Shown here: positions 3,001 to 55,061 of the stretch, piece by piece | How positions within the stretch are numbered: position 1 is the stretch's first letter | How the letters are laid out: each line of letters starts with the position of its first letter | Virus record (IMG/VR): IMGVR_UViG_3300027503_000002 | Length of the DNA: 64,000 bases | Source: a virus | Direction: 5' to 3' (one strand) | The notes under the pieces: model-generated | The model's database searches: none | What the model was told of the DNA's origin: nothing | What the model saw: the letters and a program-made list of their open reading frames with translations, nothing else | Made by a program: the position numbers and the translations under genes

Positions 3001-4385
3001 CTAGTGGCGTTAATGGCGCAGCTGGGACAAGTGGTACAGCTGGTACTAGCGGTGCAAATGGTGCTGCTGGCACTAGTGGGACAACAGGTACTAGCGGTAC
3101 AAGCGGAACTAGCCCACTTGTTGGCTGGACGGTAAAAACCTCAAATTACACCGCAGTTAATGGTGATCGTATTCTTGCAGACACTTCTGCTGGCGCTTTT
3201 ACGATTACCCTACCAGCTACTCCATCTGCTGGTAACTATGTTGAAATTAATGATTTTAAAGAAACTTGGCCAACTAATAATTTAACTGTAGCTAGAAATG
3301 GATCGAGAATCGAAAGCTTGTTAGAAGACTTAACTTGTAATTTCTCTGCTCTTCTAGGATTTACTTATATCGATGCTACAATCGGCTGGAAAGTAGACTT
3401 TATCGCTGAACTTGGCGGAACACAGGGCACTAGTGGTACCAGTGGCGCAAATGGCACAAGTGGCGTAAGTGGAACAAGCGGCACAAATGGCACAAGCGGA
3501 AGCAGTGGTGCTAGCGGTACTAGTGGCGTTAACGGTACCAGCGGTGTAAATGGAACAAGTGGTACCAGTGGCGCAAATGGCACAAGCGGTGTAAACGGAA
3601 CGAGCGGCGTCAATGGAACTTCTGGTACAAGCGGTGCTAATGGCGCTGCTGGAACCAGCGGTGTTAATGGAACGAGTGGTACTAGCGGCGCGAACGGTGC
3701 TAATGGCACTAGCGGTATAAATGGTACTTCTGGCACCACTGGCACTAGCGGCACAAGTGGAGCTAATGGTGCAGCTGGTGCTAACGGAACTAGCGGAACT
3801 ACAGGAACAAGTGGTACAAGCGGCGCTAATGGCGCAGCGGGTGCAGCGGGTACCAGTGGCACAACTGGCACTAGCGGTACAAGTGGTGCTAACGGTGCGG
3901 CAGGCACAAGTGGCACAAGTGGCGCTGGAACTATTTCTGGCACTACCAATACAATTGCTAAATTTACTTCTTCAACTGCCGTTGGCAATTCTTCTATTAC
4001 TGACACTGGATCGCTTGTAACAATCGGCGTTAATACCACAATCAACGGCCATATGGCCGCGCAGACCAAGGCGTTCCTTATTGACCACCCCACAAAGAGC
4101 GGAATGAAGTTGCAGTACGCCTGCTTGGAAGGCCCAGAAAACGGCGTGTACGTGCGCGGGCGCGGGCGCGGGGGCGTGATCTCACTGCCCGATTACTGGG
4201 TCGCGCTGGTTGATCCTCAGTCTATCACTGTTCAACTCACTCCGTTTGGCTATCAGCAAAACCTTTATGTTGAAAAAATTGAAGGCAACTTTATTTATAT
4301 ATCGTCAGACTCGCCCGATCTGGATTATTTTTATATAGTCTACGCCGAGCGTGTTGATGTAGAGAAACTTAAAGTGGAGTTTTAA
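1..4385 (+). CDS. 5'-truncated Gly-X-Y (GTS/GAN/GVN) repeat virion fibre protein with globular domains
   Basis: The frame from nt 3 (SNGTSGSSG...) reads without stops into the 951 ORF, so the true start lies upstream of the window. It has Gly-X-Y tracts, two copies of a ~100-aa [13 protein letters not shown] domain and a C-terminal KAFLIDHP...[12 protein letters not shown] domain. Confidence 0.8.
2301..3427 (+). repeat. Two near-identical ~100-aa tail-fibre-type domains (about 2301-2620 and 3108-3427)
   Basis: [42 protein letters not shown]...YIDATIGWK occurs twice. Confidence 0.85.
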
Positions 4386-14422: not shown

Positions 14423-14429
14423 TTTACAT
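14423..14429 (-). promoter_or_regulatory. putative late promoter element ATGTAAA
   Basis: RTGTAAA motif upstream of ATG 14393. Confidence 0.4.
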
Positions 14430-14452
14430 TTTTTTATCTAAAAATGGAATAA

Positions 14453-15875: not shown

Positions 15876-15877
15876 AA

Positions 15878-16327: not shown

Positions 16328-16379
16328 ATTTTACTTTACACTTTTTATATCAGATGTAATATATAGTAAGGTAAAAGGT
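16328..16379. promoter_or_regulatory. back-to-back divergent promoter region
   Basis: GTGTAAA on minus (16335-16341) and ATGTAAT on plus (16354-16360) in a 52-bp gap. Confidence 0.5.
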
Positions 16380-32486: not shown

Positions 32487-32492
32487 CATTTA

Positions 32493-32499
32493 ATGTAAA
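32493..32499 (+). promoter_or_regulatory. putative late promoter element ATGTAAA
   Basis: Motif 8 nt upstream of ATG 32508. Confidence 0.45.
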
Positions 32500-32507
32500 C
32501 TATCTAT

Positions 32508-35327: not shown

Positions 35328-35328
35328 C

Positions 35329-37545
35329 ATGCCCATTGAAACAAAGTTTAGAGTCTATATCTCTGCTAGTGGGCAATCATACGATTTAAGCGGACTTTTT
35401 CAGGATCTTGGAACGGCTGGAACAGCGGCATCGACGACTAATTTTAAGGTTGGATCATCAGATTTAAATACAATATTCCACGCATCAACAAGTGAAGGCG
35501 ATAGAATATCCTTTAATACAGGATTTAAAGTCAATGGCACAGATTTAAAAAATATTTTTCGCAAAAGGACTACGCTAGAGATAACAACCCAACCAACTAA
35601 CCAAACTGTATTAGAAACTAATACAGCGACATTCACAGTGGCAGCTACAGGTAGTGGAACTCTGCTTTATCAGTGGCAAAAGTATAATACTGGCACCAGT
35701 AATTGGGATAATCTATCAAACTCGTCTGGAGAAATAGCAGGCGCAACATCCACAACGCTGCAAATTTTAAATGCAGACTACCCAACTGATGAAGGCTCTT
35801 ACAGATGTGTAGTCACTGACGACTCTGGTTCGATAGAGAGTAATTCCGCAACCCTGACTGTAAATTATCCGCCGACAATCACCGTTCATCCAACGTCTAC
35901 GGTTTACAACGACGCAGATGCGGTGACTTATTCAGTAACCGCTACAGAAGGCAAGCCAACAGGATTAACTTACAAATGGCAGAGGTCAACAAACGGCGGG
36001 AGTTCTTGGTCAGATCTTAGCGCTGGACAAGAGACTAATATAAGCGGAATAACATCGGCTACGCTGACATTTAACTGTCAATTAGCAAGAGCAGATTACC
36101 AGTACCGTTGCGTAGTTAGCAATAGTGCCGCCAGCGTAAACTCAAATGCCGCGATTCTGTATATTAACCCAAAGATTACTACAGAACTACCTTCTACCAA
36201 GACAGTTACGGTTCTCAGTGGTCAGGAAACTGTATTGGCGGTATTTACAGTTGTTGCTGGAGGTTCAGCAACACTCAGCTATCAATGGTACAAAGACGGC
36301 TCTCCAATCGGGGCAAATAATCCATCTTTTGCAGATACTGTTGATGAAGACAGTAATGGTTCGCAGTATTACTGTGTAGTATCGTCTTCTGCTTCTGGCA
36401 CAACTCCAGACACATCTGTTACTTGCACTCTAACCGTAAACCTGACCGCCATCTCAATCTCCAGCTTCTTGGGCAATGGCGTTGCTAATCCAACGGTAAA
36501 CGAGGGCGCTTCTCTATCTTATGTCGTAACAGCGGCTGGTGCAGGAACTCTTAATTATGATTTCTATAGAAGAGACTACACTTCTAGACCTAGCTCCTAC
36601 ACTGATGTCTTGGTTCAAAGCTCAAGCTCAAACACATATACCCATAATGTAGCTTTATCAGAACACGATAGCGATTTCTTTTGCGCTGTTTCTAGTACAA
36701 AGACCTCGTTGGGAACTGTAAATAGTTCACTTTCAACACTTACTGTCAATTATGTTAGTATTAGTGAGGTTGTCGTCGATGAAGATGGTGCCCAAACTGC
36801 ACTGACGTACAACGAACAGTCTTTTGATGTCGATGTTGGTGACGTAGTAAAATTAATAATTACTGCTTCTGGAAGACCTGGGGTTAATTATCTCTGGAAG
36901 AAATGGAACGGATCTACCTATGTCACGTTCAGTGGGGCTCATATAAGTGGTCAATCAACAGCGCAGCTTCAATTTAATACAATTCTTGAAAGCGATGAGA
37001 CTTACTATGCGTGCTATGTAGATAATGGTGCTGGAATTACGGCAAATACAGAAGGAACTAGAGAAGTTTATTTAAATGTTATAGCCGTAACTACAACCAC
37101 AACTACAACCACAACTACTACGACAACCACTACAACTACTACAACTACCACTACCGAGGAGCCAACTACTACAACCACCACAACTACTACAACTACCACA
37201 ACAGCTGCTCCAAGCCCGAGCCCAAGTCCAAGCCCAAGTCCAAGCCCAAGTCCAAGCCCGAGCCCAAGCCCGAGCGCAAGTCCAAGTCCAAGCCCAAGCT
37301 TGAGCGCAAGCCCAAGCGCAAGTCCGAGCTATAGCTATAGCAATAGCCCGAGCGCAAGTCCAAGCGCAAGCAATAGTCCGAGTAGCAGCCCAAGTGACAG
37401 TCCAAGCTCTAGTTCTAGTAGTAGCTCAAGCTCAAGCTCAAGTTCTAGCTCAAGTTCTAGCTCTAGCTCTAGCGAAAGTAGTAGTCCTAGCAGCAGTAGC
37501 AGTACCAGCGAAAGCGGAAGTGGTAGTCCAAGCGCTAGCGGTTAA
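35329..37545 (+). CDS. multi-Ig-domain virion protein with mucin-like C-terminal tail
   Basis: Repeated ITTQP...YQW...YRCVV Ig motifs, then poly-Thr, (SP)n and poly-Ser. Confidence 0.85.
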   Translation: MPIETKFRVYISASGQSYDLSGLFQDLGTAGTAASTTNFKVGSSDLNTIFHASTSEGDRISFNTGFKVNGTDLKNIFRKRTTLEITTQPTNQTVLETNTATFTVAATGSGTLLYQWQKYNTGTSNWDNLSNSSGEIAGATSTTLQILNADYPTDEGSYRCVVTDDSGSIESNSATLTVNYPPTITVHPTSTVYNDADAVTYSVTATEGKPTGLTYKWQRSTNGGSSWSDLSAGQETNISGITSATLTFNCQLARADYQYRCVVSNSAASVNSNAAILYINPKITTELPSTKTVTVLSGQETVLAVFTVVAGGSATLSYQWYKDGSPIGANNPSFADTVDEDSNGSQYYCVVSSSASGTTPDTSVTCTLTVNLTAISISSFLGNGVANPTVNEGASLSYVVTAAGAGTLNYDFYRRDYTSRPSSYTDVLVQSSSSNTYTHNVALSEHDSDFFCAVSSTKTSLGTVNSSLSTLTVNYVSISEVVVDEDGAQTALTYNEQSFDVDVGDVVKLIITASGRPGVNYLWKKWNGSTYVTFSGAHISGQSTAQLQFNTILESDETYYACYVDNGAGITANTEGTREVYLNVIAVTTTTTTTTTTTTTTTTTTTTTTEEPTTTTTTTTTTTTTAAPSPSPSPSPSPSPSPSPSPSPSASPSPSPSLSASPSASPSYSYSNSPSASPSASNSPSSSPSDSPSSSSSSSSSSSSSSSSSSSSSSSESSSPSSSSSTSESGSGSPSASG
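37090..37542 (+). repeat. low-complexity poly-Thr / (Ser-Pro)n / poly-Ser coding repeat
   Basis: ACW/ACC runs, AGYCCR hexamers, mixed Ser codons. Confidence 0.95.
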
Positions 37546-37548
37546 TTT

Positions 37549-38610
37549 ATGAAAATAAAAGCACTATTCTGGAATGCAAGAGAGCTTTACGAATTAAAAA
37601 CTAGACAGGTAGTTCTCGATGCTAGAAAACAGCCAGACATCAAGGCTCATATGGTATCTACTTTAGACTCCTTTTGGGAGCATATGAATTTGGAGCTTTT
37701 ATTTGAAAAGATATTAAAAAAAGAAATAGATATAAACGTAGTAATTCAAAGAGACGAGCACGGATTTTTATGGGGAAGTCAAAAGGATTGGAAAGAGTTC
37801 GTGTATAAGTGCAATAGCATAGGAATAAAGACGCTAATGTATGATTTCGGATATTTTGACCATTATGAAAGCTATATGGTAGATACATATGGATCAGTCA
37901 ACACCGGATCTATTTTCTTTGATTGGCCAAATATTTCTGGAAATATGGACTGGGGATTAGCTCCAGAATATATACAGGAGTACAGGGATGATTTTCTAAA
38001 AAAGCTAGAAAACGAAAAGAACTCTAAGCCAGTTAACGACTTAAAATCTGGAGAGTATGTTGTTATATGGCCACAATACTCTATGGATTTGATAAGACCA
38101 GAGCTTAGGGAGGGGCTTGACAGAAAAACGGAAGTAACTGACTGGGTTAATAAAATGTGCGATGCAGTTATTAAAGCTGGACTAACGCCTGTAGTCAAAG
38201 GTGGCCCAGCTATGGATTCGTGGTCTAGATTTTCAGTGAATCAGGTAAAAACTGCACCAGTTTTTGCACACAAGCAATCTCAGCTTAAAAAAAATCCAAA
38301 TGCAAAATTTGAAAAAGAGATCAATATAAAATTGATCGCTCATGCAAAATATCACATCATAAATTGCAGCAGTGTAAGCAATGAACTTGTTCTAGCAAAT
38401 GCTCCAGTTATAGCTACTGGCAGAAGCTGGTTTTCTGGACTAGAGGTATTTATAGAGCCAAAGTCTTGGGATTCGATTCTTGATGACGCCGTTACAGTAA
38501 ATGAACAAAACAGAAACAAATGGTGCAACTGGTGGTTTACAAGACAAGTGAAGAAAGATGATGTTTGGGATAAAATTAAAGAAATTTATATGAGGTATCC
38601 AATTTATTAG
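37549..38610 (+). CDS. capsule-polysaccharide-synthesis-like (KpsS/KpsC-type) glycosyltransferase
   Basis: VIWPQ...D and INCSSVSNELVLANAPVIATGRSWF. Confidence 0.55.
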   Translation: MKIKALFWNARELYELKTRQVVLDARKQPDIKAHMVSTLDSFWEHMNLELLFEKILKKEIDINVVIQRDEHGFLWGSQKDWKEFVYKCNSIGIKTLMYDFGYFDHYESYMVDTYGSVNTGSIFFDWPNISGNMDWGLAPEYIQEYRDDFLKKLENEKNSKPVNDLKSGEYVVIWPQYSMDLIRPELREGLDRKTEVTDWVNKMCDAVIKAGLTPVVKGGPAMDSWSRFSVNQVKTAPVFAHKQSQLKKNPNAKFEKEINIKLIAHAKYHIINCSSVSNELVLANAPVIATGRSWFSGLEVFIEPKSWDSILDDAVTVNEQNRNKWCNWWFTRQVKKDDVWDKIKEIYMRYPIY

Positions 38611-38611
38611 T

Positions 38612-39547
38612 ATGAATTTAGTCATCTTTGTTGGTCATGGATCTGGAAAGATTTCAAAAAAATTTCTTGATATAATTTCTTCTACAAAATCGCAGAACTT
38701 TGAGGCCAAGAAGGTAAAGACTGTCGAAGAATTTAAAGTATTGATAAAAAAATATGCCTGCGTATTTTCAAAGATTTTTATTTTTCCTATATACTGTGAG
38801 GACGCCGACTTAAAAAGAACTTTTAAAATTGATCTGGCTGTGGATGTAGAGCACGCCTGCAAGGAATATAGCAATTGTTTTGTGTGTCATGGGTCAAGTC
38901 TTGGGTCAATTCTGGGGGATAAAATGAAAACAAATTTATTTTTAACTCAAAATGGTATTGCGTGCCCTAGGCTCATAGATAATTTTGATTATAATGGTAA
39001 AGTATTTTCAAATGCAAGATGTGGATCTCATGCAAAAACATTTTTATTAGATGGGGGCAAGAACATAAAAAGCGCAGACTATAACACAGAATTTATAGAT
39101 ACAAGTTTTGATTATAAAGGAGATGTTTATTACGCTTGTCCAAGAGCAATGTGCATTGAGGGCGAAATAACTGATATATTTTTAAGATTTAGAAACGCTA
39201 AAGATCTTAATCCGAATGTCCACGCTGGCGACACTCCGAAAGATTACGAATTACAAAACTTTTACTACGAAACAAAAATACTTCCAAATCTAAATAAATT
39301 AAAAGATTTTTGTTTTAATGTAGGCAAGCTTTTTAGTTTAGGTTTTTATGGTCATGACCTTTTGCTCTGCAATAAGACTAATCAATTTTATATGGCAGAA
39401 AGCTCTTTTAAATTTGATAACATTATTATGTGGAAAAATAAGATAAAAGATATGCAGCCATTTATAAAACACGAAAAGCCAGTAGAAGAGGGAATGCTTG
39501 AGGCGATTGGTATTTTTTATTCAATATTAGAAGAAAAATATAAATAA
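38612..39547 (+). CDS. ATP-grasp-like protein
   Basis: GDKMKTNLFLTQNGIACPR and FYGHDLL...FYMAE pattern. Confidence 0.4.
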   Translation: MNLVIFVGHGSGKISKKFLDIISSTKSQNFEAKKVKTVEEFKVLIKKYACVFSKIFIFPIYCEDADLKRTFKIDLAVDVEHACKEYSNCFVCHGSSLGSILGDKMKTNLFLTQNGIACPRLIDNFDYNGKVFSNARCGSHAKTFLLDGGKNIKSADYNTEFIDTSFDYKGDVYYACPRAMCIEGEITDIFLRFRNAKDLNPNVHAGDTPKDYELQNFYYETKILPNLNKLKDFCFNVGKLFSLGFYGHDLLLCNKTNQFYMAESSFKFDNIIMWKNKIKDMQPFIKHEKPVEEGMLEAIGIFYSILEEKYK

Positions 39548-39549
39548 TT

Positions 39550-40332
39550 ATGACTGACCAAGAAATTAATCAAAAAGTTTTAGAAAGCAGAGTTTTTAGA
39601 ATGCTTGGACAAGATGAAGAAAATTTTGCGCCATATAAAATTTATTTTGACTATATAAAAGAAATGGAATCGATTAATGGATACCCGCTTTTATCAATGG
39701 TTAAAAAAAATAAAAGCAGGATGAACGTTTGGCTTCATGCGTTAGAGCTTTTGCCAAAAGAATCAATAATTCTGGAATTTGGTGTTTTTAGAGGCATGTC
39801 TATTAATTTCATGTCAAAATTCAGGCAGGACTGTTTATTTTATGGGTTTGATAAATTTAAAGGGCTTCCAGAAAACTGGATACTGCCAAATGGCAAGTTG
39901 AAAGGAAGGGCTGGAATATTTAATACTTACAGCACAAGAGATAAAATTTTTTTTAATGATAACGTTATTATCAAAGATGGATGGTTTGATGAGACGGTGG
40001 AGCCTTTTAAAAAAAATTTAACTGAAGTTGAATCTTCTAAAATAAGCCTTATTCATATCGATTGCGACATATATAGCAGTACCGCATTTGTATTAGAAAA
40101 TATTGCAGGCATAATAAAGAAAAATAAGCCATATTTGATGTTTGACGAATTCGTTCACGCAAGAAGAATCCCGATCAAACAAAGAGTGAATAAAAATATA
40201 AAATCAATAATTTACTCTGGTTGTGAATCAGTTGCATTTAGAGAGTTTGTTGACAAGCATAATGTAGATTTTAAAATTATAGGTCAAACACAAGGCAGAA
40301 GGAATAAGGTGGTTTTAATAAAAATTCTATGA
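39550..40332 (+). CDS. TylF/MycF-like O-methyltransferase
   Basis: LEFGVFRG, GFDKFKGLPE, GWFDET, HIDCDIYSST, FDEF. Confidence 0.8.
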   Translation: MTDQEINQKVLESRVFRMLGQDEENFAPYKIYFDYIKEMESINGYPLLSMVKKNKSRMNVWLHALELLPKESIILEFGVFRGMSINFMSKFRQDCLFYGFDKFKGLPENWILPNGKLKGRAGIFNTYSTRDKIFFNDNVIIKDGWFDETVEPFKKNLTEVESSKISLIHIDCDIYSSTAFVLENIAGIIKKNKPYLMFDEFVHARRIPIKQRVNKNIKSIIYSGCESVAFREFVDKHNVDFKIIGQTQGRRNKVVLIKIL

Positions 40333-41108
40333 GTGACACTATTCGCATATTTGTGGGAAGTGAAATCGGTAATGAAAAAGCAGAAAAAGCTTTACATTAC
40401 AGCATAATAAAAAACTGCAAAGGAAGCGTAGATATATATTGGATGTCAGATAAATACAAGGATTCGATATGGGATAACTGGAACAAAGGAAGAGATGATA
40501 GAACTCAAAACTCTGGAGTAGGCTGGAAAACTAATTTTTCAGTTTTTAGATGGGCAATTCCAGAGCTTTGCGACTATAGCGGCAAGGCGATTTATTTGGA
40601 CGTTGATCAAATTGTCTTAAAGGATATAGAGCAGATGTGGAATCTTGATGTTAGAGATAATGCCGCACTGGCAATAAAAGAAGAAAGAACAGATGTCATG
40701 CTGATAAACTGTTCAAAATTCAAAGCTGATTTTTGGCCAAAAATACAAAAAATGAAGCCATCTGGCAAAAATCAAAAGCATTACAGACTCTTAATACAAA
40801 AAAATTCATCAATAGGTACGCTAGATAAAATATATAACTGTTTAGATGGCAAGGATTTTGATCAAGAAACTACAAGACTAGTACACTATACAAAGATGAA
40901 CACTCAGCCTTGGAGACCGTTTCCAGAAGTAATGCAGTATAAAGAGCACGGCAATAAGCAAGTTGAGAACCTGTGGCATGATTATTACAAAGAGGCTTTA
41001 GAATTTGAGGTAAAAAATAATTATATTCTTGGTTCTCCAGATGGATTTTTTGATTTAAAGTCTAGTTTTGATAGAGTAAGTAATTCTGCTGCCAAATACA
41101 TAAGATGA
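40329..41108 (+). CDS. GT-A glycosyltransferase (GT8-like)
   Basis: TNFSVFRWAIP, AIYLDVDQ, LVHYT...QPW. Confidence 0.75.
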   Translation: MSDTIRIFVGSEIGNEKAEKALHYSIIKNCKGSVDIYWMSDKYKDSIWDNWNKGRDDRTQNSGVGWKTNFSVFRWAIPELCDYSGKAIYLDVDQIVLKDIEQMWNLDVRDNAALAIKEERTDVMLINCSKFKADFWPKIQKMKPSGKNQKHYRLLIQKNSSIGTLDKIYNCLDGKDFDQETTRLVHYTKMNTQPWRPFPEVMQYKEHGNKQVENLWHDYYKEALEFEVKNNYILGSPDGFFDLKSSFDRVSNSAAKYIR

Positions 41109-41983
41109 TAAAATCGGCATATTATGGGATAGATGAAAAATACATAGATGTTAAAGATAGAATCCTATCAGATATACAGCATAAAAAATGTATTAAAGTG
41201 TCTAATGCATACTTCGGAAAAGATCCTGCGGTTAATGTTTTAAAGAGATTACGCATAGAAACTGAAGGTGGTGAAGTCTTTGTTTTTAACGAAAACAGTA
41301 TATGTCATTTAAATTTTTTAGATAAAAGTATTCTAAAAAAGACAAGATTGGGAATTTTTTACACAAACAATAAAATAAAAGAAGAAATACTAGATTCAAG
41401 TCTAGCTTCTATACAAAAATCAGTAGAGACATCGAATAATGCAGAAGTTATAGTTTGTCCGCAAGTAGCTAATTGTCAAAAATATTTTTTTGAAATAGAT
41501 TCAATATTTAAAAATAATCATCATCCAAATATAGTTTCTCAGATTTTGCAGTGCCTATCTGTTTTGAATAATTATAATAATTTTAAATACATAAGTTTTT
41601 TGGAGCATGATGTTTTGTATCCAGAGGAATATTTTGCATTTGAGGATTTTGACGAGAGTTATGTGTGCAATCAAAACTATATAGGAATATCAAAAATGGG
41701 TTTTCAGAAAAGCAATAGTGCCGCTTTGCCGCTTCATCAAATGACAATGAAAGCTGATTTTGCAAAAACTTACTTTGAAAAGCTATTGATAAAATATCTT
41801 TATGGACAGTTTGAAACGCTTGAGCCAGCTGGTAATATAAAGAAGATTTTTAATAAAAACCCATCTATGCATGTGAATCATGGAAAAAATTTTACATCAC
41901 ATTTCCAGACTTACAGAAAAGAGTACGCTGACAAAAATGAATATTGGGGAGAGTCCTCTAAGTATCAAAACTTTTTCTTATGA
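41105..41983 (+). CDS. GT-A glycosyltransferase with small N-terminal lectin-like module
   Basis: SAYYG...FGKDPAVNVLKRL N-terminus; FLEHDVLYP. Confidence 0.55.
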   Translation: MIKSAYYGIDEKYIDVKDRILSDIQHKKCIKVSNAYFGKDPAVNVLKRLRIETEGGEVFVFNENSICHLNFLDKSILKKTRLGIFYTNNKIKEEILDSSLASIQKSVETSNNAEVIVCPQVANCQKYFFEIDSIFKNNHHPNIVSQILQCLSVLNNYNNFKYISFLEHDVLYPEEYFAFEDFDESYVCNQNYIGISKMGFQKSNSAALPLHQMTMKADFAKTYFEKLLIKYLYGQFETLEPAGNIKKIFNKNPSMHVNHGKNFTSHFQTYRKEYADKNEYWGESSKYQNFFL

Positions 41984-42807
41984 GAAGTTTAACAGTTGGG
42001 ATGGCAACTTATGATGATTTTGATGGTGTTTACTTTACCATTCAGTCAATCCGGCTTTTTCACAAAGAAGTTTTAGATCACATAGAATTTATTATTGTTG
42101 ATAATAATCCATCGGGTAAGCATTCTGATTCAGTAAAAAAGCTGTGCAATGCAGTTAGTGAGCCAATTCAATATATATCGCAGCCAGAATATTCTAGCAC
42201 ATCCATAAGAAATAAAATATTTTCATTTGCAAGGACGCCTTATGTTTTGTGCGTAGACTGTCACGTATTAATAGAGTCTGGCGCTATTAAAAAATTAATA
42301 GATTTCTACGACTCAAAAAAAGATGAAGGAAACCTTTTACAGGGACCGCTGCTGTATGATGATTATAAACATATTTCAACTCATTTTGATCTTAAATGGC
42401 GCTCTCATATGTGGGGAACTTGGGAAACTGACAAAAGAGGACTGAGCCCCGATTCTGAACCGTTTGAAATTCAAGCTCAGGGTCTTGGGTTATTTTCTTG
42501 TGCTAAAGATTCTTGGTTAGGATTTAATGATCAGTTCAGAGGCTTTGGTGGAGAGGAGGGCTACATTCACGAAAAGTACAGGATGAATGGCAAAAAAACT
42601 TTATGCCTTCCATTTTTAAGATGGGTCCATCGTTTTGGAAGGCCAAGTGGAGTTCCGTATCCAATATCTTTAACAAACAAAATCAGGAACTATATAATAG
42701 CATTTACTGATCTAAATATACAATTAGATCCAGTTTATGAACATTTTAAAGAATCTATATCAAAAGAAGCTTTTTTAAATTTGGTTAAAGAAGTTATAAA
42801 AAAATGA
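41980..42807 (+). CDS. GT2-family glycosyltransferase
   Basis: VGMATYDD, IIVDNNP, CVDCHV, GFGGEE. Confidence 0.8.
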   Translation: MRSLTVGMATYDDFDGVYFTIQSIRLFHKEVLDHIEFIIVDNNPSGKHSDSVKKLCNAVSEPIQYISQPEYSSTSIRNKIFSFARTPYVLCVDCHVLIESGAIKKLIDFYDSKKDEGNLLQGPLLYDDYKHISTHFDLKWRSHMWGTWETDKRGLSPDSEPFEIQAQGLGLFSCAKDSWLGFNDQFRGFGGEEGYIHEKYRMNGKKTLCLPFLRWVHRFGRPSGVPYPISLTNKIRNYIIAFTDLNIQLDPVYEHFKESISKEAFLNLVKEVIKK

Positions 42808-43730
42808 AAATACTTTACATAACCCCACACTTGTCAACTGGGGGATTGCCTCAATATCTTTTAAAAAAGATTCAATCTTTAAAAGAAAATGAGATCTGGT
42901 GTATTGAATATAATTTTGTATCAGACAAATACACGGTTCAGAGAAATCAGGTTCTAGATCTTTTAAAAGACAAGTTTATTTCTTTAGGTAGTCAACCAAA
43001 AGAAAGGCTATTAGATTTAATAACGCAAATCGGGCCAGATGCAATTCATTTTGAGGAGTTTCCAGAAACCTTTGTATCTCACGAAATGCTGTATAAAATA
43101 TACGGTAAAGACAGGCGGTATTTGATATTTGAAACCAGTCATGGAATTTATTACAAGCCTCAAAGCAAAATCTTTCTGCCAGATAAGTTTATTTTTGTTT
43201 CTGAAATGCAGGCTGAAATGTATGGCAAGATGGGTGTTGGATATGAGATACTGGAATATCCAATAGATTTTAAAGACCCTAATAAAGCATTTAAAAAAGA
43301 ACTGGGATTCAAAGACGATGTAAAGCACGTATTAAATATTGGACTTTTTACTCAGGGTAAAAACCAAAAAGAGTTGATCGAGTACGCGCGCGCGCTTGAG
43401 GGCGAGAAGATCCAATTTCACTTTGTAGGTAATATGGCCGTTAACTTCAAGGATTATTGGGAGCCGATCTTAAAGAATCTCCCAAATAACTGTTTGATCT
43501 GGGGTGAAAGAAATGACGTTGATAAGTTCTATCAGGCTGCTGACTTGATGGTTTTTACCTCTAAAAGAGAAACGTCGCCGCTTGTTATCAGAGAGGCTTT
43601 GTCTTGGAAACTGCCGTGTTTGATTTATAATCTTCCAGCCTATAAAAATATGTATGATAAATTTGCTGGAGTTAGCTATTTAAAAGAGGGCGCTTTTAAG
43701 GAAAATCTCAAGAAGATCAAAGCTATATGA
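42804..43730 (+). CDS. GT4-family glycosyltransferase
   Basis: PHLSTGGLPQ, KNQ, FTSKRETSPLVIREALS. Confidence 0.8.
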   Translation: MKILYITPHLSTGGLPQYLLKKIQSLKENEIWCIEYNFVSDKYTVQRNQVLDLLKDKFISLGSQPKERLLDLITQIGPDAIHFEEFPETFVSHEMLYKIYGKDRRYLIFETSHGIYYKPQSKIFLPDKFIFVSEMQAEMYGKMGVGYEILEYPIDFKDPNKAFKKELGFKDDVKHVLNIGLFTQGKNQKELIEYARALEGEKIQFHFVGNMAVNFKDYWEPILKNLPNNCLIWGERNDVDKFYQAADLMVFTSKRETSPLVIREALSWKLPCLIYNLPAYKNMYDKFAGVSYLKEGAFKENLKKIKAI

Positions 43731-44893
43731 GAGATACTCTGCTTAATATTTATTCAAAAACAGAAAAATCATTTAAGGAACCAAGGAGGGCACAAAATAC
43801 AATTGAAGTGTCGTTTCTTGATTCAGCCAAAGTATCCATAAACGGCCCAATTGATCAGAGCTATACAGTAAAGTTTATTAATAATAAGACTGGCGAAATT
43901 ACCTACTCTTCTGAAATTAAGAATAATATGTGGTCTAAATCAACGATCCCGTATTACATTGAGTGGCGAATTCTTGTTGAGTCTGGCGGTCAAGCAATAT
44001 TTGATCAAGTTTTAAATCTTAAGGATAAGAAAGTATTGGTAGTTATAGACTCGCAGAGTCTTGGCGATATTTTGGCTTATGTTGGCCAGATTGACCGCTT
44101 TCAAACAAAGCACGGTTGCAAGTTAGATGTTTTGGCGCTGAATAAAGAGTTGGCGGAAATCCTAAATCTATCATACGAGAATATCAATTTTATTTCAGAT
44201 TTTAGCTATAAAGAGGACTACTATGCAATTTATAAGATAGGTTATCCATTGGAGAACTGGCAGAGCAGAAACCCAATCGATCCACGCACAATTCCTCTGC
44301 AACAAGTAGCTAGCTCAGTTCTTGGGCTAGATTTTAAAGAAGAAAAGCCGATTTTAACGTTTCAAAATTCAACCAAGAAGCATAAAAAATACGTTACTAT
44401 CGCTACTCAAAGCACTGCTCAGTGCAAGTACTGGAACAATGAGAAAGGTTGGGAGACACTAATAAATTATTTAAATAGCAAGGGATACGATGCTTGGTGC
44501 ATTGACCGCTTCCCTGTTTTTGGTAATGAAAAACAAAAGATGAACTTTATCCCCAAGGGGGCTATAGATAAGACTGGAAACATTCCACTAGAGGTCAGAA
44601 TGTCGCAAATCTATAATTCTGAATTTTTTATTGGTTTAGGATCGGGACTATCTTGGTTAGCTTGGGCGCTGAATAAGCCAACCGTATTAATTAGCGGATT
44701 CAGCAAAGCTTTTGCGGAGTTTGAGACCCCTTACCGAATCATTAACGACTCTGTGTGCAATGGGTGCTGGAACGATCCTAGCCTTAAATTTGATAAGGCT
44801 AACTGGATGTGGTGCCCCAGAAATAAGAACTTTGAGTGCTCGTCCAAGATAACCCCAGAAATGGTTATCGAAAAGATCAATACTCTACTTTGA
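43727..44893 (+). CDS. Aah/TibC-like (autotransporter strand-loop-strand) protein O-heptosyltransferase
   Basis: SLGD, STAQCKYWNN, FIGLGSGLSWLAWA, LISGFS and a C-x2-C-x15-C-x7-C iron-finger pattern. Confidence 0.8.
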   Translation: MRDTLLNIYSKTEKSFKEPRRAQNTIEVSFLDSAKVSINGPIDQSYTVKFINNKTGEITYSSEIKNNMWSKSTIPYYIEWRILVESGGQAIFDQVLNLKDKKVLVVIDSQSLGDILAYVGQIDRFQTKHGCKLDVLALNKELAEILNLSYENINFISDFSYKEDYYAIYKIGYPLENWQSRNPIDPRTIPLQQVASSVLGLDFKEEKPILTFQNSTKKHKKYVTIATQSTAQCKYWNNEKGWETLINYLNSKGYDAWCIDRFPVFGNEKQKMNFIPKGAIDKTGNIPLEVRMSQIYNSEFFIGLGSGLSWLAWALNKPTVLISGFSKAFAEFETPYRIINDSVCNGCWNDPSLKFDKANWMWCPRNKNFECSSKITPEMVIEKINTLL

Positions 44894-45257
44894 CCCGCTT
44901 AGACTCGTAGGTCTTTTTTTGATCTGGGTGGACTGCGCCTTTGCGGTTGGCGGAATAGTCCTTAAAAAACTTTTCTTTTATTGGGTCAGAGCCACCGTAT
45001 GTTTTAGCGCGTTTTTCGCTCAATTCCCTGCTCTTGTCTATCAGGTCGCCATAAGTCCCTTTCTTGTTTCTTGTGGCATCGATAAACGCGGTACTGCTAT
45101 TCGGGTCTATTTGCGAGTCTATGGAGGCATTGGGTATCTGGTATACCCTTTTCCACTTCAGCCCGTTTTGGTCGGTATATGAGTGCTCCTCGTTCATTGT
45201 CTGAAGGATGTCTACGACCTCTCCTGTTTCGGGGTTCTCGTATGTATAAAGTGGCAT
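44877..45257 (-). CDS. FmdB-like ribbon protein lacking cysteines
   Basis: MPLYTY.NPETGE N-terminus. Confidence 0.5.
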   Translation of the reverse strand: MPLYTYENPETGEVVDILQTMNEEHSYTDQNGLKWKRVYQIPNASIDSQIDPNSSTAFIDATRNKKGTYGDLIDKSRELSEKRAKTYGGSDPIKEKFFKDYSANRKGAVHPDQKKTYESKRVKVEY

Positions 45258-45271
45258 ATTTTATTATGAAT

Positions 45272-45297
45272 AAAAAAGCCGCTTTTTCAAGCGGCTT
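45272..45297 (-). terminator. rho-independent terminator downstream of hsp20
   Basis: AAGCCGCTT-N4-AAGCGGCTT followed by a T run on the minus strand. Confidence 0.7.
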
Positions 45298-45302
45298 AGT
45301 TT

Positions 45303-45626
45303 TTAGGTAATTTTAATTGTTTTTAGCTGTGGCGGCTTCTTGTTTGGAATTCTAAATAGAAGCTGTCCGTGCTCCATAGTTGCTGTCGCATTGTGCATAT
45401 CAAGTTTCTCGGAAACATCAAAAACTTGACTAAACACGCTAGCCTTATTCTTTTGAGCTTCGATTTTAACCGTATAGTCAACGTCGCTATACGAGATAGT
45501 CACGTTGTCTTTATTAACTCCTGGTAGATTAACGGTGATTGTGGCGCCATTTTCATCTACATTGGAGACGTAATTATAAGTGCTAGCTGCGCTTGTTGCT
45601 GAATAGTAGTATGTTTTTGAGTACAT
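45303..45626 (-). CDS. small heat shock protein (Hsp20/alpha-crystallin)
   Basis: NLPGVNKDNVTI and ATMEHGQLLFRIP; ATG at 45626. Confidence 0.75.
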   Translation of the reverse strand: MYSKTYYYSATSAASTYNYVSNVDENGATITVNLPGVNKDNVTISYSDVDYTVKIEAQKNKASVFSQVFDVSEKLDMHNATATMEHGQLLFRIPNKKPPQLKTIKIT

Positions 45627-45680
45627 AGTTGTGACGCTGTTATTTAGCAAAGCTTGTGCCAAGGTCTTTCCTAGGAAGAA

Positions 45681-49171: not shown

Positions 49172-49177
49172 TGTAAA
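49171..49177 (+). promoter_or_regulatory. putative late promoter element GTGTAAA
   Basis: 10 nt upstream of ATG 49188. Confidence 0.5.
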
Positions 49178-49187
49178 ACTATTTATT

Positions 49188-49940: not shown

Positions 49941-49963
49941 GCCAAAAGATATAGAAAATATAG

Positions 49964-49994
49964 ACCCGCCTTCTAAGATCTAGAAAGCGGGTTT
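49964..49994 (+). terminator. possible terminator hairpin
   Basis: ACCCGCCTTCTA...TAGAAAGCGGGT followed by TT. Confidence 0.45.
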
Positions 49995-50001
49995 ATTATT
50001 T

Positions 50002-50649: not shown

Positions 50650-51589
50650 TCCAAAGGATATTTTAACAAAGTTTTATTCTTCAAAAAAATGCACTAGGCC
50701 GATATTAAAAGATCTTGATAAGATAAAAGAATCTAATGAGTTAAATTTAACAACTTTAAATATTGGACTTGGAGATGCAATTATTTTATCGTCTCTTACA
50801 AAAGACACTAGAAAAAAGTTAGATATTTATTCTTTAAATAGGCACTGGCAAACTTTGTGCAAATTTAATAATAAACTAAATCCATCAGTACAAGAGGCAA
50901 AGAACAGGATTAGAGTAGAGATCCTGCACTTTTTTGATTGCGGAAATGGACATCTGTATCAAAAAACACAAAGGGCTCTTGGCTTAGAAGTCGATACATT
51001 GCCTAAAGGATATCTAACTCCGACAGTAAAAACCTCTATTAGAAAAAATAGAATTGCTATTAATTTTTCTACTGGACCAAGCGGCCTAGATCTGTTATCT
51101 GTTGGATTTAAAAACCCAAGAAGACTAGAAGATAATGCCAAACTTGAAATTGAAAAATTTATCAAAAATTCAAATTATAGTTTTGTAGAAATAGGGACTG
51201 AAAGAATGTTCGACTTTGATAATGTTGAAGACTTCACAAACAGATCCGTTGAAGATTCACTGAATGAACTAAGCTCATGTGAATTTTTTATAGGGCTTAA
51301 TAGTGGCTTTATGAACGCAGCATCATGTTTTGATATTAAGTCAATTATCATTGTGAATGTGCCAAGAATAGAAGATCTTTATCTACCGATAATTGTTGAC
51401 TTCTACGATGACGAAACAAGAGCCGCGCAAGATCTTGAATGGCTGTTTCCGCAGAATGTGCATCTGCATCAAAATGGTGAAAATGAATTGGTTCCAATCG
51501 TATCAGAAGAAAATTTAAAAAAAGCAATTAATGGCGAGGTATATCCTTATTGGAAATTTGATTTTCTTGATCTAATATTTACAACATGA
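50642..51589 (+). CDS. GT9-like (GT-B) glycosyltransferase
   Basis: GLGDAIIL, FFIGLNSGFMNAA; ATG at 50642. Confidence 0.6.
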   Translation: MDNPKDILTKFYSSKKCTRPILKDLDKIKESNELNLTTLNIGLGDAIILSSLTKDTRKKLDIYSLNRHWQTLCKFNNKLNPSVQEAKNRIRVEILHFFDCGNGHLYQKTQRALGLEVDTLPKGYLTPTVKTSIRKNRIAINFSTGPSGLDLLSVGFKNPRRLEDNAKLEIEKFIKNSNYSFVEIGTERMFDFDNVEDFTNRSVEDSLNELSSCEFFIGLNSGFMNAASCFDIKSIIIVNVPRIEDLYLPIIVDFYDDETRAAQDLEWLFPQNVHLHQNGENELVPIVSEENLKKAINGEVYPYWKFDFLDLIFTT

Positions 51590-52728
51590 ACTGGCCGCTA
51601 AATGTAGACAACTTTACATTCGTTGATAGATTAAAAATTTGCTCCTTTATTCTTAATAAGAAGAACAGGTGGACGCAAGGGAATCTTATCTATCAGTTTG
51701 AACTAGCTATGGCGGATTTTGTTGACAGTAAGTACGCAGTATACTGTTCAAGCGGCTCAACTGCGAACACGATGATTGCGATGTATCTTGCTGACAAAGA
51801 GAAAGATAAGAATATCGTAGTTTTTCCATCTACAACTTGGGCCACATCAGTTGGACCATTTATTAGAGAAGGATTTTTACCAAAATTTATTGACGTATCC
51901 CTTGAGGATCTTTGCTTTAACTATGATCTGCTTGAGGACTTTGTATCAAAAAACAAAGATAATATTGCTGCAATCTTTCCGACAAGCCTGCTAGGATTTG
52001 TTCCAGATATCCCTAGATTAAAGAAAATAGCTCAAACTTATGGAGTAAGGCTAATGTTTGATAATTGCGAAAATACATTTGGGACTTATGATGGCAAAAA
52101 CGTATCATCTTTTGTTACCTCCACTACAAGTACTTATTTCGGCCACCATCTTCAAAGCATAGAAGGCGGATTTGTATTCACAAATGATGTAGATGAATAC
52201 GAATATTTCCTTATGCTTAGAAATCACGGGATGACAAGATCCGTAACAAATAATGCACGGTACGCCAATTTAGATGTTGATCCAAGATTTGATTTTTATT
52301 GCGTAGGGAATAATTTTCGAAACTCAGAAGTCCATGCGATGACTGGCCTTCTTGATCTCAAAAAAGCAGACAAACATATAGAAACGAGACGCAGGCTTTA
52401 CTCTTTATTTGACACATATCTTTCTGATCTTTATTATCTGCCGCCATTTGATGAAAAGAAGGAACATGTGGCTTTTGCCCTGCCAATCATACCGCTTAAG
52501 CAGGAAAGCAAGCAGCTCGCAATTAATTATTGCAATTCAAAGGGCATTGAAACAAGACCTATTATTTCTGGCAATCTGCTTAGACAAACTTGTTTTAAGC
52601 AGTTTGGCAACTACGCCGATTATCCAAATAGCGAGTTCCTGCATCACAATGGGTTCTATGTTGGTCTCCATACTAAACTCAAAGACTCTGACGTAAGAAA
52701 TTTAGCCAAAGATCTCAACACTATTTAA
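51586..52728 (+). CDS. colD: DegT-family PLP enzyme, ColD-like GDP-4-keto-6-deoxymannose 3-dehydratase
   Basis: SSGSTAN, DNCE, STYFGHHLQSIEGG with His at the usual Lys position; two genes from gmd. Confidence 0.65.
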   Translation: MNWPLNVDNFTFVDRLKICSFILNKKNRWTQGNLIYQFELAMADFVDSKYAVYCSSGSTANTMIAMYLADKEKDKNIVVFPSTTWATSVGPFIREGFLPKFIDVSLEDLCFNYDLLEDFVSKNKDNIAAIFPTSLLGFVPDIPRLKKIAQTYGVRLMFDNCENTFGTYDGKNVSSFVTSTTSTYFGHHLQSIEGGFVFTNDVDEYEYFLMLRNHGMTRSVTNNARYANLDVDPRFDFYCVGNNFRNSEVHAMTGLLDLKKADKHIETRRRLYSLFDTYLSDLYYLPPFDEKKEHVAFALPIIPLKQESKQLAINYCNSKGIETRPIISGNLLRQTCFKQFGNYADYPNSEFLHHNGFYVGLHTKLKDSDVRNLAKDLNTI

Positions 52729-52729
52729 A

Positions 52730-53086
52730 ATGTCAACCGAAAGAATAAATAAAATTAGCGAGCTTCTTCTAGAGGAGATCTCGGAACGGTTTGACAAAGA
52801 GCCGATCCACTCTTCTGATATCGAGTTTAGTGAAAGCTTCGCTGAAATCATGGATCGCTTTATTGTTCTGCACATTAGAATGTGGAAGCTGGAAGATGCG
52901 ATTGCCGATGCAAAGACGGACGCCGAAGTCGCAGACTTGAAAAGGAAAGTCGATTACTGTTTCAAAGATCGCCGCCCGAAGTTAACAAAGGCAATTAATT
53001 CATATCTTGACGTTTATGTTAACAAGAATAACGTCAAAAAGTTTTCAGAAGAAAACGTTAAACTTTATAAAGGATTTAAAAATTAA
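52730..53086 (+). CDS. small helical protein (DUF4254-like)
   Basis: MDRFIVLHIRMWKLED pattern seen in sugar loci. Confidence 0.5.
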   Translation: MSTERINKISELLLEEISERFDKEPIHSSDIEFSESFAEIMDRFIVLHIRMWKLEDAIADAKTDAEVADLKRKVDYCFKDRRPKLTKAINSYLDVYVNKNNVKKFSEENVKLYKGFKN

Positions 53087-54114
53087 TGAAAAAAGTAATC
53101 ATTACAGGAGTTACTGGTCAGGATGGTAGTCATATGGCAGATTACCTTTTAACTAACACTGATGTTCAAATTTTTGGTGCAGTTCGTCGTCTTAGTGTTT
53201 CCAACCATAAAAATATTAGCCATATTTCCGATCCAAGATTCAAGCTTATCGACCTTGATATTGGTGACCCAGAAAGCGTAAATAACGCGATATTCAAATA
53301 CAAGCCGGATTATTTTATTAATTTAGCGGCAAACTCCTTTGTAGGGACAAGTTGGGAAATGCCAGTCAACCATATGCAAACCAACTGTATGGGAGTGCTT
53401 TATCAACTTGAGGCAATTAGAAAGTTTGTTCCAAACTGTCGCTACTACAACGCAGGCTCCTCAGAGGAATTTGGAGATGTTACCTTTAGCCCCCAAACAG
53501 AATTTCATCCACTTAGACCCAGAAGTCCATACGGAGCATCAAAAGCTGCCGCAAGACAAGTTGTAAAAGTATGGAGAGACTCTTACAATCTTTATGCAGT
53601 TCAAGGCTGGCTTTTTAATCACGAAGGAACTCGCAGAGGCTCAGAGTTTGTCACTAGAAAGATCACCAAGGGAGTTGCAAAAATTAAAAAGGCAATAGAC
53701 TCAAATAACTTTATTGAGGCTATAAAGCTAGGCAATCTTGAGTCAAAGCGCGATTGGAGTGATGCTGAAGACTTTGTTCATGGTATTTGGCTGATGCTTA
53801 ATCAGGAAAAGCCAAAGGACTATGTGCTTTCTTCTGACGAAACTCATACTGTTAGAGAATTTGTAGAACTGTCTTTTGCTGCGGCTGGTATCGAAGGTCA
53901 ATGGCTCGGCAACCGAGGAACCATCGAAGAAGTCTTTATAAATAAGGAAAGCAGACTTCCTATGGTAATGATCGATCCAAAGTTCTTCCGCCCAGCTGAA
54001 GTCGAACTGCTTCTTGGCGATTCTACAATGGCCAGAAGTGAGCTTGGCTGGCGACCCAAGACAAGCTTCTTCCAGCTTGTTAAAAAGATGACGCTCAACG
54101 ACCTTGCTCAATGA
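53086..54114 (+). CDS. gmd: GDP-mannose 4,6-dehydratase
   Basis: ITGVTGQDGS, PRSPYGASK, FNHE, FVTRKIT, RDW, FRPAEVELLLGD. Confidence 0.95.
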   Translation: MKKVIITGVTGQDGSHMADYLLTNTDVQIFGAVRRLSVSNHKNISHISDPRFKLIDLDIGDPESVNNAIFKYKPDYFINLAANSFVGTSWEMPVNHMQTNCMGVLYQLEAIRKFVPNCRYYNAGSSEEFGDVTFSPQTEFHPLRPRSPYGASKAAARQVVKVWRDSYNLYAVQGWLFNHEGTRRGSEFVTRKITKGVAKIKKAIDSNNFIEAIKLGNLESKRDWSDAEDFVHGIWLMLNQEKPKDYVLSSDETHTVREFVELSFAAAGIEGQWLGNRGTIEEVFINKESRLPMVMIDPKFFRPAEVELLLGDSTMARSELGWRPKTSFFQLVKKMTLNDLAQ

Positions 54115-55061
54115 ACCATATCCTAGCTTATTGCGTACTGAATGAATTTCATCCATCAAGATTAAATATCTCAAGAGATTTAAACAGCGTAAATCTTTTT
54201 AGAAACGAAGCTCACTGCTCCATCTCTAGGGATGGAGTTCGTGTTTTAAGAAAGTCAAATTGGATCGACGAGATACGACTTAATTTCTTTATCCAATTTA
54301 CAGACGCAACCATTAGAAGCTATAATTTGTGCGATCTTGATTTTGAAGCCATTGTAAACTTTAACGATGGTCCGCAGAACGACTCAAAGGAAACAAGGCT
54401 GTGCTTTGCGCGTCCAAGAAACAGTCCACACATCTGCATTCCAGATTCTCATTTGTCGCGAACAGCTAGCATCTGTAGCCAAATAGAGAGCGTGGATATT
54501 CCATTTGAAGAAAAAATGGATAAAGCGATTTTTTGCGGGTCAGATACTGGCGCAAAGCACAATGGTTCAGTGCAAAGAATTGATCTTTGCAGAAAGTACA
54601 GATACAGCCAACTAGTAGACGCTAAGATTACAAACTTTGTCGAATTTCCCTTTGAGGATGGCATCGCTGGAGCTTATATCAGTATTGCTGATCAATTAAA
54701 ATATAAATATATTTTAAATGTCAATGGCAACACCACATCTTGGGAGAGGCTAATCTGGGCAATGAAATCAAATTCTATTTGTATTTATGTTCGCCCTCCG
54801 TCGTATCAAGATGAGATTTCTTGGTACTATCATATGTTTGATGTCATTCAGGGCGTAATTTATGTTGATCAAGACTGTATCGAACACTTTATGGCACAGA
54901 TGGGAAATGATAAAAATTACATTCAATCAATTAAAAATTGTCAAAAATATCTAGCAAATGCTCTTGACAAACCAGACGTTCATGCCGCATACTTCTCCGC
55001 AATCCTAAAAGCTTATAACAGTTATTACAATGGAGGCGGCGATGTTCAAAAACTCAGTTAA
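54111..55061 (+). CDS. GT90 (CAP10/KDELC/POGLUT-like) glycosyltransferase
   Basis: KAIFCGSDTG, QLKYKYILNVNGNTTSWERL...SNS, WYY. Confidence 0.75.
   Translation: MNHILAYCVLNEFHPSRLNISRDLNSVNLFRNEAHCSISRDGVRVLRKSNWIDEIRLNFFIQFTDATIRSYNLCDLDFEAIVNFNDGPQNDSKETRLCFARPRNSPHICIPDSHLSRTASICSQIESVDIPFEEKMDKAIFCGSDTGAKHNGSVQRIDLCRKYRYSQLVDAKITNFVEFPFEDGIAGAYISIADQLKYKYILNVNGNTTSWERLIWAMKSNSICIYVRPPSYQDEISWYYHMFDVIQGVIYVDQDCIEHFMAQMGNDKNYIQSIKNCQKYLANALDKPDVHAAYFSAILKAYNSYYNGGGDVQKLS

Follow-up and report, generated by a model that had tools for sequence, protein, structure and literature searches.

A 64,000-nucleotide stretch of DNA from an uncultured large tailed phage (IMG/VR virus record IMGVR_UViG_3300027503_000002; the whole stretch is referred to here as the window) contains, at positions 35329–44893, a gene for an immunoglobulin (Ig)-domain virion protein with a mucin-like C-terminal tail, followed directly by eight genes for glycan-building enzymes (ORF2 to ORF9). 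The evidence assembled here, all of it derived from sequence, suggests that the locus probably encodes a system by which the phage glycosylates its own virion proteins, in which the gene for a substrate and those for its modifying enzymes would make up one unit. The original prediction held that the phage decorates its own Ser/Thr-rich virion proteins, and this is strengthened by the membership of ORF9 in the BAHT family of protein glycosyltransferases, by genes for a prolyl 4-hydroxylase (P4H) and a POFUT2-like transferase in sister loci, by the co-variation of tails and enzymes and by the solubility of the enzymes; it is weakened in one respect, as the last two enzymes of the operon persist at related loci where the Ig protein has no tail.

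The Ig-domain protein (738 aa, 35329..37545, plus strand) is identified as a tail-associated virion protein by Pfam (Ig_3 1e-19, I-set 3e-18, Ig_2 2e-14) and PHROG matches (tail protein 3e-40, Hoc-like 4e-18). A series of Ig-like domains follows its N-terminal domain of ~80 aa, and the C-terminus is a tail of low complexity. The N-terminal domain, a probable virion anchor, is homologous to the C-terminal domain of a mucin-only protein from the related locus L003 (BLASTP 4e-8), while its similarity to the collagen-like protein of locus L007 is not significant (E 0.11). The tail (residues ~588–738, 37090..37542, plus strand) runs in the order T22, EEP, T13, AAP, (SP)n, a mixed S/P/A/N segment and finally ~22 Ser, and the tandem-repeat scan resolves its coding DNA into imperfect repeats of 6–24 nt. 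Among the 48 window ORFs of at least 150 aa, this tail holds the only Ser/Thr/Pro-rich tract (at least 70% within 30 aa), and the tail is the candidate O-glycosylation acceptor.

The stop codon of the Ig gene lies 3 nt from the next gene, and the eight enzyme genes that follow are spaced by 1–2 nt or overlap by 4 nt. Two structural claims made earlier, that the Ig protein ends in ~150 aa of poly-Thr, (SP)n and poly-Ser and that a 3-nt gap leads into eight tightly coupled genes, can thus be read directly from the translation and the ORF coordinates. The operon closes a late, co-oriented string in which tail-fibre genes, the Ig gene and the eight enzyme genes all lie on the same strand. No terminator-like site stands out between the Ig gene and 45276–45297, where a bidirectional terminator-like hairpin is found (9-bp stem with 5 GC pairs, T-runs on both strands). 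This hairpin, with more GC pairs than any other terminator-like site in 32000–45700, may close convergent transcription units; the total number of such sites in that interval does not exceed chance expectation, and promoter-like sites are likewise no more frequent than by chance. A 126-aa minus-strand ORF (44877–45257) converges on the 3' end of ORF9 with a 17-nt overlap and is 73–94% identical in all related loci. None of the eight enzymes has a hydrophobic segment, and all are soluble. Neither a flippase, a polymerase, a lipid-carrier transferase nor an ABC exporter was recognised among the called genes of the window, several of which have no family match. The GC content of the enzyme operon (0.31–0.35 over 38001–44000) is below that of the flanking phage DNA (~0.40–0.43), as is that of 50001–52000 (0.34), which fits acquired or often-swapped cassettes.

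The last gene of the operon, ORF9 (43727..44893, plus strand), encodes a TibC/Aah-type protein O-heptosyltransferase. It scores 348.3 bits on the NCBIfam equivalog TIGR04414 (cut-off 200), as against 24 bits or less on the models of the lipopolysaccharide (LPS) heptosyltransferases RfaC, RfaF and RfaQ, and aligns over residues 29–385 with the sequence of the TibC crystal structure 4rap (E 1.5e-70). In TibC, Asp-110 is the catalytic base, Thr-226, Lys-230, Arg-286 and Trp-305 contact the donor, and Cys-339, Cys-342, Cys-358 and Cys-370 form an iron finger (PMC4358343). The first five of these residues are identical in ORF9, the adenine-contacting Arg is retained, and the four cysteines align, with iron binding predicted from sequence; across 12 phage homologues the Asp, Lys, Trp and all four Cys are invariant and the Thr is at least 90% conserved. 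By these measures ORF9 is a full member of the family of bacterial autotransporter heptosyltransferases (BAHT), and Ser-O-heptosylation from ADP-heptose is its predicted activity. To our knowledge, cytoplasmic protein glycosylation is the only known activity of this family.

More than 2600 TibC-like relatives are found in metagenomes, where fusions to FkbM methyltransferases are frequent, while in GenBank phages the domain is confined to Microcystis phage Mel-JY01 and three unannotated megaphage records. In Mel-JY01 (L029, PP395634.1; 4750–8430) it forms the C-terminal part of a 1226-aa coding sequence (CDS) annotated as 'methyltransferase FkbM', with 38% identity to ORF9. Other fusions include a TibC-like protein with an extra 240-aa C-terminal domain (L007, 10001–11890) and two with an N-terminal glycosyltransferase of family GT4 (L011, 9077–11158; L016, 13779–15902), and at L010 (5595–8440) two TibC-like copies occupy neighbouring genes.

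All eight family calls made earlier for the operon were upheld, by profile matches, fold or language-model similarity. ORF2, ORF3 and ORF6 have no matches in Pfam, PHROGs or NCBIfam (ORF2 also has none in a PDB sequence search), and were for this reason assigned by fold or language-model similarity. ORF2 (37549..38610) is a GT-B-like transferase whose AlphaFold2 (AF2) model (pLDDT 95) most closely resembles WbbB (Z 16.2, rmsd 3.3 Å over 268 aa) and KpsC (Z 13–14.6), as opposed to Z 10–12 and rmsd >7 Å for generic GT-B enzymes. The modelled fold is therefore nearest to those of the retaining β-Kdo (ulosonic acid) transferases WbbB and KpsC, a likeness that exceeds that to generic GT-B enzymes; by sequence, ORF2 does not join GT99 (WbbB) or GT107 (KpsC, KpsS), giving no match to Pfam Capsule_synth, NCBIfam or PDB entries. 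ORF3 (38612..39547) is assigned as a RimK-type ATP-grasp ligase from ESM Atlas features (score 0.96–0.97 to RimK/ATP-grasp clusters) and structure (TM 0.6–0.75).

Profile matches identify ORF4 (39550..40332) as a TylF-type S-adenosylmethionine-dependent O-methyltransferase (PF05711 1e-5, PF13578 3e-5, phrog_6608 3e-27), ORF5 (40329..41108) as a GT8 glycosyltransferase (PF01501 5e-10), ORF7 (41980..42807) as a GT2 glycosyltransferase (PF00535 2e-9) and ORF8 (42804..43730) as a GT4 glycosyltransferase (PF00534 3e-15), all of the operon being on the plus strand. In almost all of the related loci, the TibC-like gene has a GT4 gene of the ORF8 type as its neighbour or fusion partner. ORF6 (41105..41983) has a GT-A fold (AF2 pLDDT 90), its leading Foldseek matches being the GT-A enzymes SpsA, TarP, GlcAT and BoGT6a (E ~1e-5, TM ~0.4). 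Pfam domains are absent from nearly all of its 464 metagenome homologues and its Atlas clusters are 95–100% viral; the family is thus seen mostly in viruses and has no Pfam model. The triplet E167-H168-D169 is invariant in this family and probably occupies the DXD position.

We compared ~45 related loci, drawn from viral and metagenome collections through relatives of the TibC-like, Ig, P4H, ORF2-like and ORF6-like proteins. The co-occurrence of Ser/Thr-rich proteins with glycosyltransferase clusters in related phages, which the original prediction had proposed as a check, is observed, and tail chemistry and enzyme set co-vary. In the phage group of the window the gene order is kept: an S74 fibre, a variable protein X, variable enzymes, GT4, the TibC-like gene and the same minus-strand genes. 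Where X is an Ig protein with a poly-Thr/(Ser-Pro)n/poly-Ser tail (the window, L038 and L039), the enzymes are ORF2, ATP-grasp, in part the methyltransferase, GT8, ORF6 and GT2, so that window-type enzymes recur alongside the window-type tail. An Ig protein with a (Thr-Pro)n/(Glu-Pro)n tail (L002, L013, L033, L035, L036) is accompanied by a PF10250/POFUT2-like, or O-fucosyltransferase-like, transferase and a P4H. At L003–6, X is a 424-aa mucin-like protein, made up of 340 aa of Ser/Thr/Pro repeats and an 85-aa domain homologous to the N-terminus of the Ig protein, and the enzymes are two GT2, an ORF2-like protein, a methyltransferase, a GT32 and a sulfotransferase. A collagen-like X (L007–9, L030) comes with a 2-oxoglutarate oxygenase and a double GT2 in L007–9 only. 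Finally, of the loci where the Ig protein has no tail (L015–17, L031), two were inspected for intervening enzymes: L031 has none, and in L016 the GT4 carries an additional domain as a fusion. Within the cassette of the mucin-only variant, L003 encodes a Nucleotid_trans and Sulfotransfer_2 fusion (7915–9078), a hint that the virion protein may bear sulfate, either on its glycans or on Ser/Thr/Tyr.

The limits of the exchanged unit are visible in the comparison of the window with L002, whose Ig protein is 92% identical over residues 1–583: homology ends exactly at the junction of Ig array and tail and restarts at GT4, so that the exchanged unit is the tail together with the enzymes. Over the ~45 loci the GT4 and TibC-like pair is constant, and tail and intervening enzymes are swapped as one block. 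Three Ig backgrounds (92%, 76% and ~36% identity) carry the unit of (TP/EP)n tail, O-fucosyltransferase-like enzyme and P4H, which occurs together with either of two TibC alleles (88% and 49%), and at all five O-fucosyltransferase and P4H loci with upstream DNA the upstream ORF ends in a (TP/EP)n tail. The P4H of these sister cassettes (L002, L013, L033) matches those of Chlamydomonas and Bacillus anthracis (E 4e-25), human C-P4H alpha-2 (7e-21) and chlorovirus PBCV-1 (6e-12); the window itself has no homologue of the P4H or of the O-fucosyltransferase-like enzyme. Beyond the phage group of the window, an ORF2-like gene lies directly 3' of a large tail or fibre gene in six of six contexts, and five of the six upstream proteins contain Ser-rich low-complexity tracts; one, of 626 aa, consists almost wholly of (SNSP/STSA)n and poly-Ser and comes from an unrelated myovirus with no TibC gene nearby. 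Two loci depart from the pattern: at L041 the ORF2-like gene follows a tail protein with no low-complexity tract, and the TibC-like sugar cluster of L010 has no visible structural gene in 14.9 kb.

A second type of potential acceptor is found at the start of the window, where tail-fibre PHROGs identify a proline-free, collagen-like (Gly-Thr/Ser-Ser)n fibre (3..4385, plus strand) with 744 aa of G-X-Y repeats, 46% Ser+Thr and 0% Pro. All independent TibC contexts for which sufficient DNA is available (the window, L007–9, L011, L012, L029, L030 and L032) contain Pro-free G-[ST]-[ST] collagen-like ORFs; at L011 the collagen-like ORF comes directly after the TibC fusion, and in the L005 and L006 contigs a homologue of the window fibre (76–79% identical) is situated towards the distal end, ~30 kb from the TibC-like gene. 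In Mel-JY01, a plus-strand ORF of 1016 aa (2–3049), 486 aa of which are collagen-like G-X-Y, overlaps minus-strand CDSs annotated as 'hypothetical protein' (1–651 and 739–2298), which may be shadow ORFs. Mel-JY01 also encodes a Ser-rich structural protein (3065–4591 of its record).

Several points weigh against virion glycosylation, or against parts of it. The phage has no cultured close relative; a near-identity DNA search with 20 kb against 50,697 phage records gave zero matches, and its DnaB helicase shares <29% identity with that of any cultured phage. Many of the compared loci belong to related phages with a common gene order, so the counts of co-variation are not all independent. The GT4 and TibC-like pair persists where the Ig protein is tail-less (L016, L031), from which it follows that the tail is not the sole acceptor and is not needed for the core pair. 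Families and folds of the kind seen here (GT9, GT4, GT8, GT2 and Kdo-transferase-like) also build the LPS core. Two features of TibC are changed in ORF9: Pro-300, which sets D,D-heptose stereoselectivity, is Gly, and Phe-265/Val-266 at the thumb's tip are Gln/Lys. The thumb is a β-hairpin whose contacts build the TibC dodecamer (PMC4358343), a feature of assembly and not of catalysis, and these substitutions leave the donor sugar and the oligomeric state of ORF9 uncertain. Heptose-pathway genes (PF01467, PF13580) were not found in five related viral fragments, which are 21–41% complete. Moreover, the acceptors of TibC and Aah are folded β-helix repeats and not disordered tails (PMC4358343).

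The persistence of the core pair raises the question of which protein it serves, and ORF9 may act on the collagen-like fibre rather than on the mucin-like tail. Carried further, virion glycosylation could be real with the fibre at 3–4385 and/or other fibres as its acceptors, and the Ig tail no more than an unglycosylated flexible spacer. We consider this unlikely. It would account for the Pro-free collagen-like ORFs that accompany all independent TibC genes with sufficient surrounding DNA, for the fibre homologue in L005 and L006 and for the retention of the core pair without any tail, but not for the joint swap of tail and enzymes, which has one of its breakpoints precisely where Ig array and tail meet, nor for the restriction of P4H and the POFUT2-like enzyme to Pro-rich tails. 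In addition, ORF2-like genes follow Ser-rich tracts at L040 and L043 with no collagen-like ORF or TibC gene nearby, and a spacer at the extreme C-terminus would connect nothing. We favour a two-tier arrangement, in which the core pair would act on a conserved acceptor rich in Ser and Thr (perhaps the collagen-like fibre, perhaps any exposed Ser/Thr) and the cassette enzymes would act on the tail.

A different target altogether is the host envelope: the enzymes could remodel the LPS core, O-chain or capsule, for instance to prevent superinfection or alter which receptors are displayed, and would lie beside the tail genes only as a side effect of hypervariability in this region. For pelagimyophages, the glycosyltransferases encoded in the hypervariable tail-fibre region have been interpreted in this way, as modifiers of the host O-chain (PMC7029224), and the same reading can be extended here, where gmd and colD would yield a dideoxyhexose precursor of O-antigen type and the lower GC content of the operon is as expected of acquired genes. 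Enzymes of the GT9, GT4, GT8, GT2 and Kdo-like families, moreover, assemble the LPS core at the cytoplasmic face with no membrane-spanning helices of their own. This reading is nevertheless disfavoured, and we judge it improbable, given that ORF9 scores 348 bits on a protein-specific family and at most 24 on RfaC, RfaF and RfaQ, that sister cassettes carry a protein-acting P4H and a POFUT2-like gene, and that the enzyme set follows the tail of the upstream protein; the genes also sit within the late structural string, and the called genes of the window include no recognised initiating polyprenyl-phosphate transferase, flippase, polymerase or ABC exporter. DNA modification by phage glycosyltransferases is well established and the window encodes ThyX and a dUTPase, so glycosylated bases, or a modified small molecule, might also be considered. 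This we hold to be highly implausible, as no gene for a base hydroxymethylase or similar enzyme was found in the window, no known DNA-glycosylation set resembles these eight enzymes, among them a Kdo-transferase-like fold, a TibC-type enzyme and an ATP-grasp ligase, and the location of the genes within the tail module also tells against it, as does their co-variation with protein tails.

If the phage does glycosylate its virion proteins, O-linked sugars would be added to Ser and Thr in the cytoplasm of the infected cell, before assembly. The GT4 and TibC-like pair (ORF8 and/or ORF9) would probably initiate the glycan, with a first sugar that, by homology, would be Ser-O-heptose from an ADP-sugar. 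On the mucin-like tail, the ulosonic-acid-type ORF2, the GT8, the GT-A enzyme and the GT2 could then elongate, the TylF methyltransferase could cap by O-methylation, and the ATP-grasp ligase could amidate a sugar carboxylate or add amino acids. Donors might be drawn from host LPS precursors (ADP-heptose and CMP-Kdo) and from GDP-deoxyhexose made by the phage through gmd and colD. An Ig-domain arm on the phage tail would then be expected to bear a hydrated brush of glycans at its tip, which phages would diversify by exchanging the low-complexity tail and its enzymes together, as a single cassette.

The genes that might contribute to donor supply lie downstream of the operon, in a plus-strand cluster (51586..55061) for which this role is possible: a ColD-like dehydratase (51586–52728; ColD/WbdK 3e-46, against 5e-21 for perosamine synthetase), a GDP-mannose 4,6-dehydratase (gmd, 53086–54114; PF16363 6e-105) and a GT90 transferase (54111–55061; PF05686 2e-7), the sole PDB match of which is POGLUT2 (3e-6). 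Of the tally once given for the whole window, the sulfotransferase, gmd and ColD-like genes are present, but eight glycosyltransferase genes (nine glycosyltransferase domains) could be verified instead of about ten, and one methyltransferase instead of three; the count was not fully reproduced because PHROG and Pfam scans of the remaining ORFs (12649–18374 and 48497–51589) gave nothing useful.

The first part of the window (3–13188) may hold another string of substrate and enzymes. It starts with the collagen-like fibre, after which come two LamG-like genes (5249–6648), an RCC1-repeat protein (8117–10321), a sulfotransferase (10324–11067), a fusion of GT8 and GT9 (11015–12652) and a 179-aa ORF. 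The GT8 and GT9 fusion was considered as a TibC-like gene and ruled out, since it gives no tblastn match to ORF9. Tail-fibre genes in the window are of collagen-like, RCC1-repeat and S74-chaperone types, and there is an ORF of 3022 aa; SSB, dUTPase, ThyX, RecA-like, DnaB-like and primase genes are also present. Related viral fragments of 30–60 kb are rated 21–41% complete, which suggests a genome of roughly 150 kb. A partial ORF2 homologue (P0032, 56% identity) has been deposited in a metagenome-assembled genome of 'Candidatus Fonsibacter ubiquis'; taken with the lake-metagenome sources, this hints weakly at a freshwater host or at carry-over in binning.

The closest known counterparts of ORF9 are TibC, which modifies TibA, and Aah, which modifies AIDA-I, in E. 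coli (PDB 4rap/4rb4; PMC4358343), with which it shares a near-full-length alignment, the catalytic and iron-finger residues and a soluble enzyme. As in those loci, the gene lies near one for a Ser-rich, repetitive surface protein. The phage locus differs in having no autotransporter, its neighbours being tail-fibre, Ig-domain and glycosyltransferase genes; in place of a β-helix, the proteins that might be its acceptors are a mucin-like tail without order or a fibre of collagen-like type, and the phage enzyme is almost always paired with or fused to GT4, and often with FkbM methyltransferases. Ser/Thr-rich disordered regions of streptococcal proteins are also glycosylated (PMC12041528), and the bacterial adhesin systems SRRP/GtfAB and Sdr/Clf-SdgA/SdgB, in which dedicated enzymes of GT4 type attach O-glycans to long Ser-rich stretches, resemble the phage loci in combining Ser-rich low-complexity regions, such as the (SDSVSVSE)n repeats of L003, with nearby GT4-type enzymes. 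ORF8 matches the SdgA model weakly (23.5 bits, cut-off 800), and the resemblance is one of logic, not of membership.

Among phages, the mycobacteriophages Che8, Corndog and Myrna encode glycosyltransferases that glycosylate the structural proteins of their own particles (Freeman et al. 2023, as summarised in PMC12363180 and PMC12894461). There, too, the glycosyltransferase genes lie in or next to the structural module. The acceptors in those phages are subunits of the capsid and the tail tube, whereas the putative acceptor here is a dedicated appendage of Ig or mucin-like type; hosts and enzyme families also differ, and cassette-like co-variation of tail and enzymes is not described for them. 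We know of no report of BAHT, P4H or Kdo-transferase-like enzymes in mycobacteriophage virion glycosylation. In giant viruses, the chlorovirus PBCV-1 has a P4H and virus-encoded capsid glycosylation (PDB 5c5t; PMC7019647). The predicted phage system would share with giant viruses a virus-encoded, host-independent modification of virion surface proteins in the cytoplasm, and the P4H of the sister cassettes matches that of PBCV-1; giant viruses, however, infect eukaryotes, whereas here the genes form a compact tailed-phage operon with the substrate gene directly upstream. Mimivirus likewise has glycosylated fibrils and a collagen hydroxylase/glycosyltransferase.

Virion glycosylation as such is therefore known from mycobacteriophages, and virus-encoded glycosylation and P4H from giant viruses, but a literature search returned no description of a phage BAHT/TibC enzyme or of a mucin-like phage appendage with matched enzymes. 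What is new here is the clean swap of tail plus enzymes as a cassette and its variant with P4H and the O-fucosyltransferase-like enzyme. Tentatively, tailed lake phages may possess a modular virion glycocalyx, in which an acceptor tail, or a whole mucin- or collagen-like protein, and its matching enzymes form an exchangeable cassette that recombines at the domain/tail junction and at the GT4 and TibC-like core. Distinct enzyme-substrate codes would then pair P4H and the O-fucosyltransferase-like enzyme with Thr/Glu-Pro tails, KpsC/WbbB-like enzymes with Ser-rich tails and TibC-like enzymes with proline-free collagen; the first of these, as tentative as the rest, would amount to plant-like hydroxyproline glycoprotein chemistry in a phage.

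The cassette architecture allows the predicted enzyme-acceptor pairs to be tested by co-expression without the uncultured phage, and such pairs are possible tools for protein O-glycosylation in the bacterial cytoplasm, the candidates being the TibC-type enzyme, the KpsC/WbbB-like enzyme found after Ser-rich tails, and the P4H of a bacterial virus with its O-fucosyltransferase-like partner. Environmental phages commonly carry glycosyltransferases in hypervariable tail-fibre regions, and the usual interpretation is that these are auxiliary genes acting on the host surface (PMC7029224). If virion glycosylation is borne out, many of those now taken for modifiers of host LPS would decorate the virion instead, which would change how phage particles are thought to meet hosts, grazers, proteases and particles in water, and with it the view of host-range evolution.

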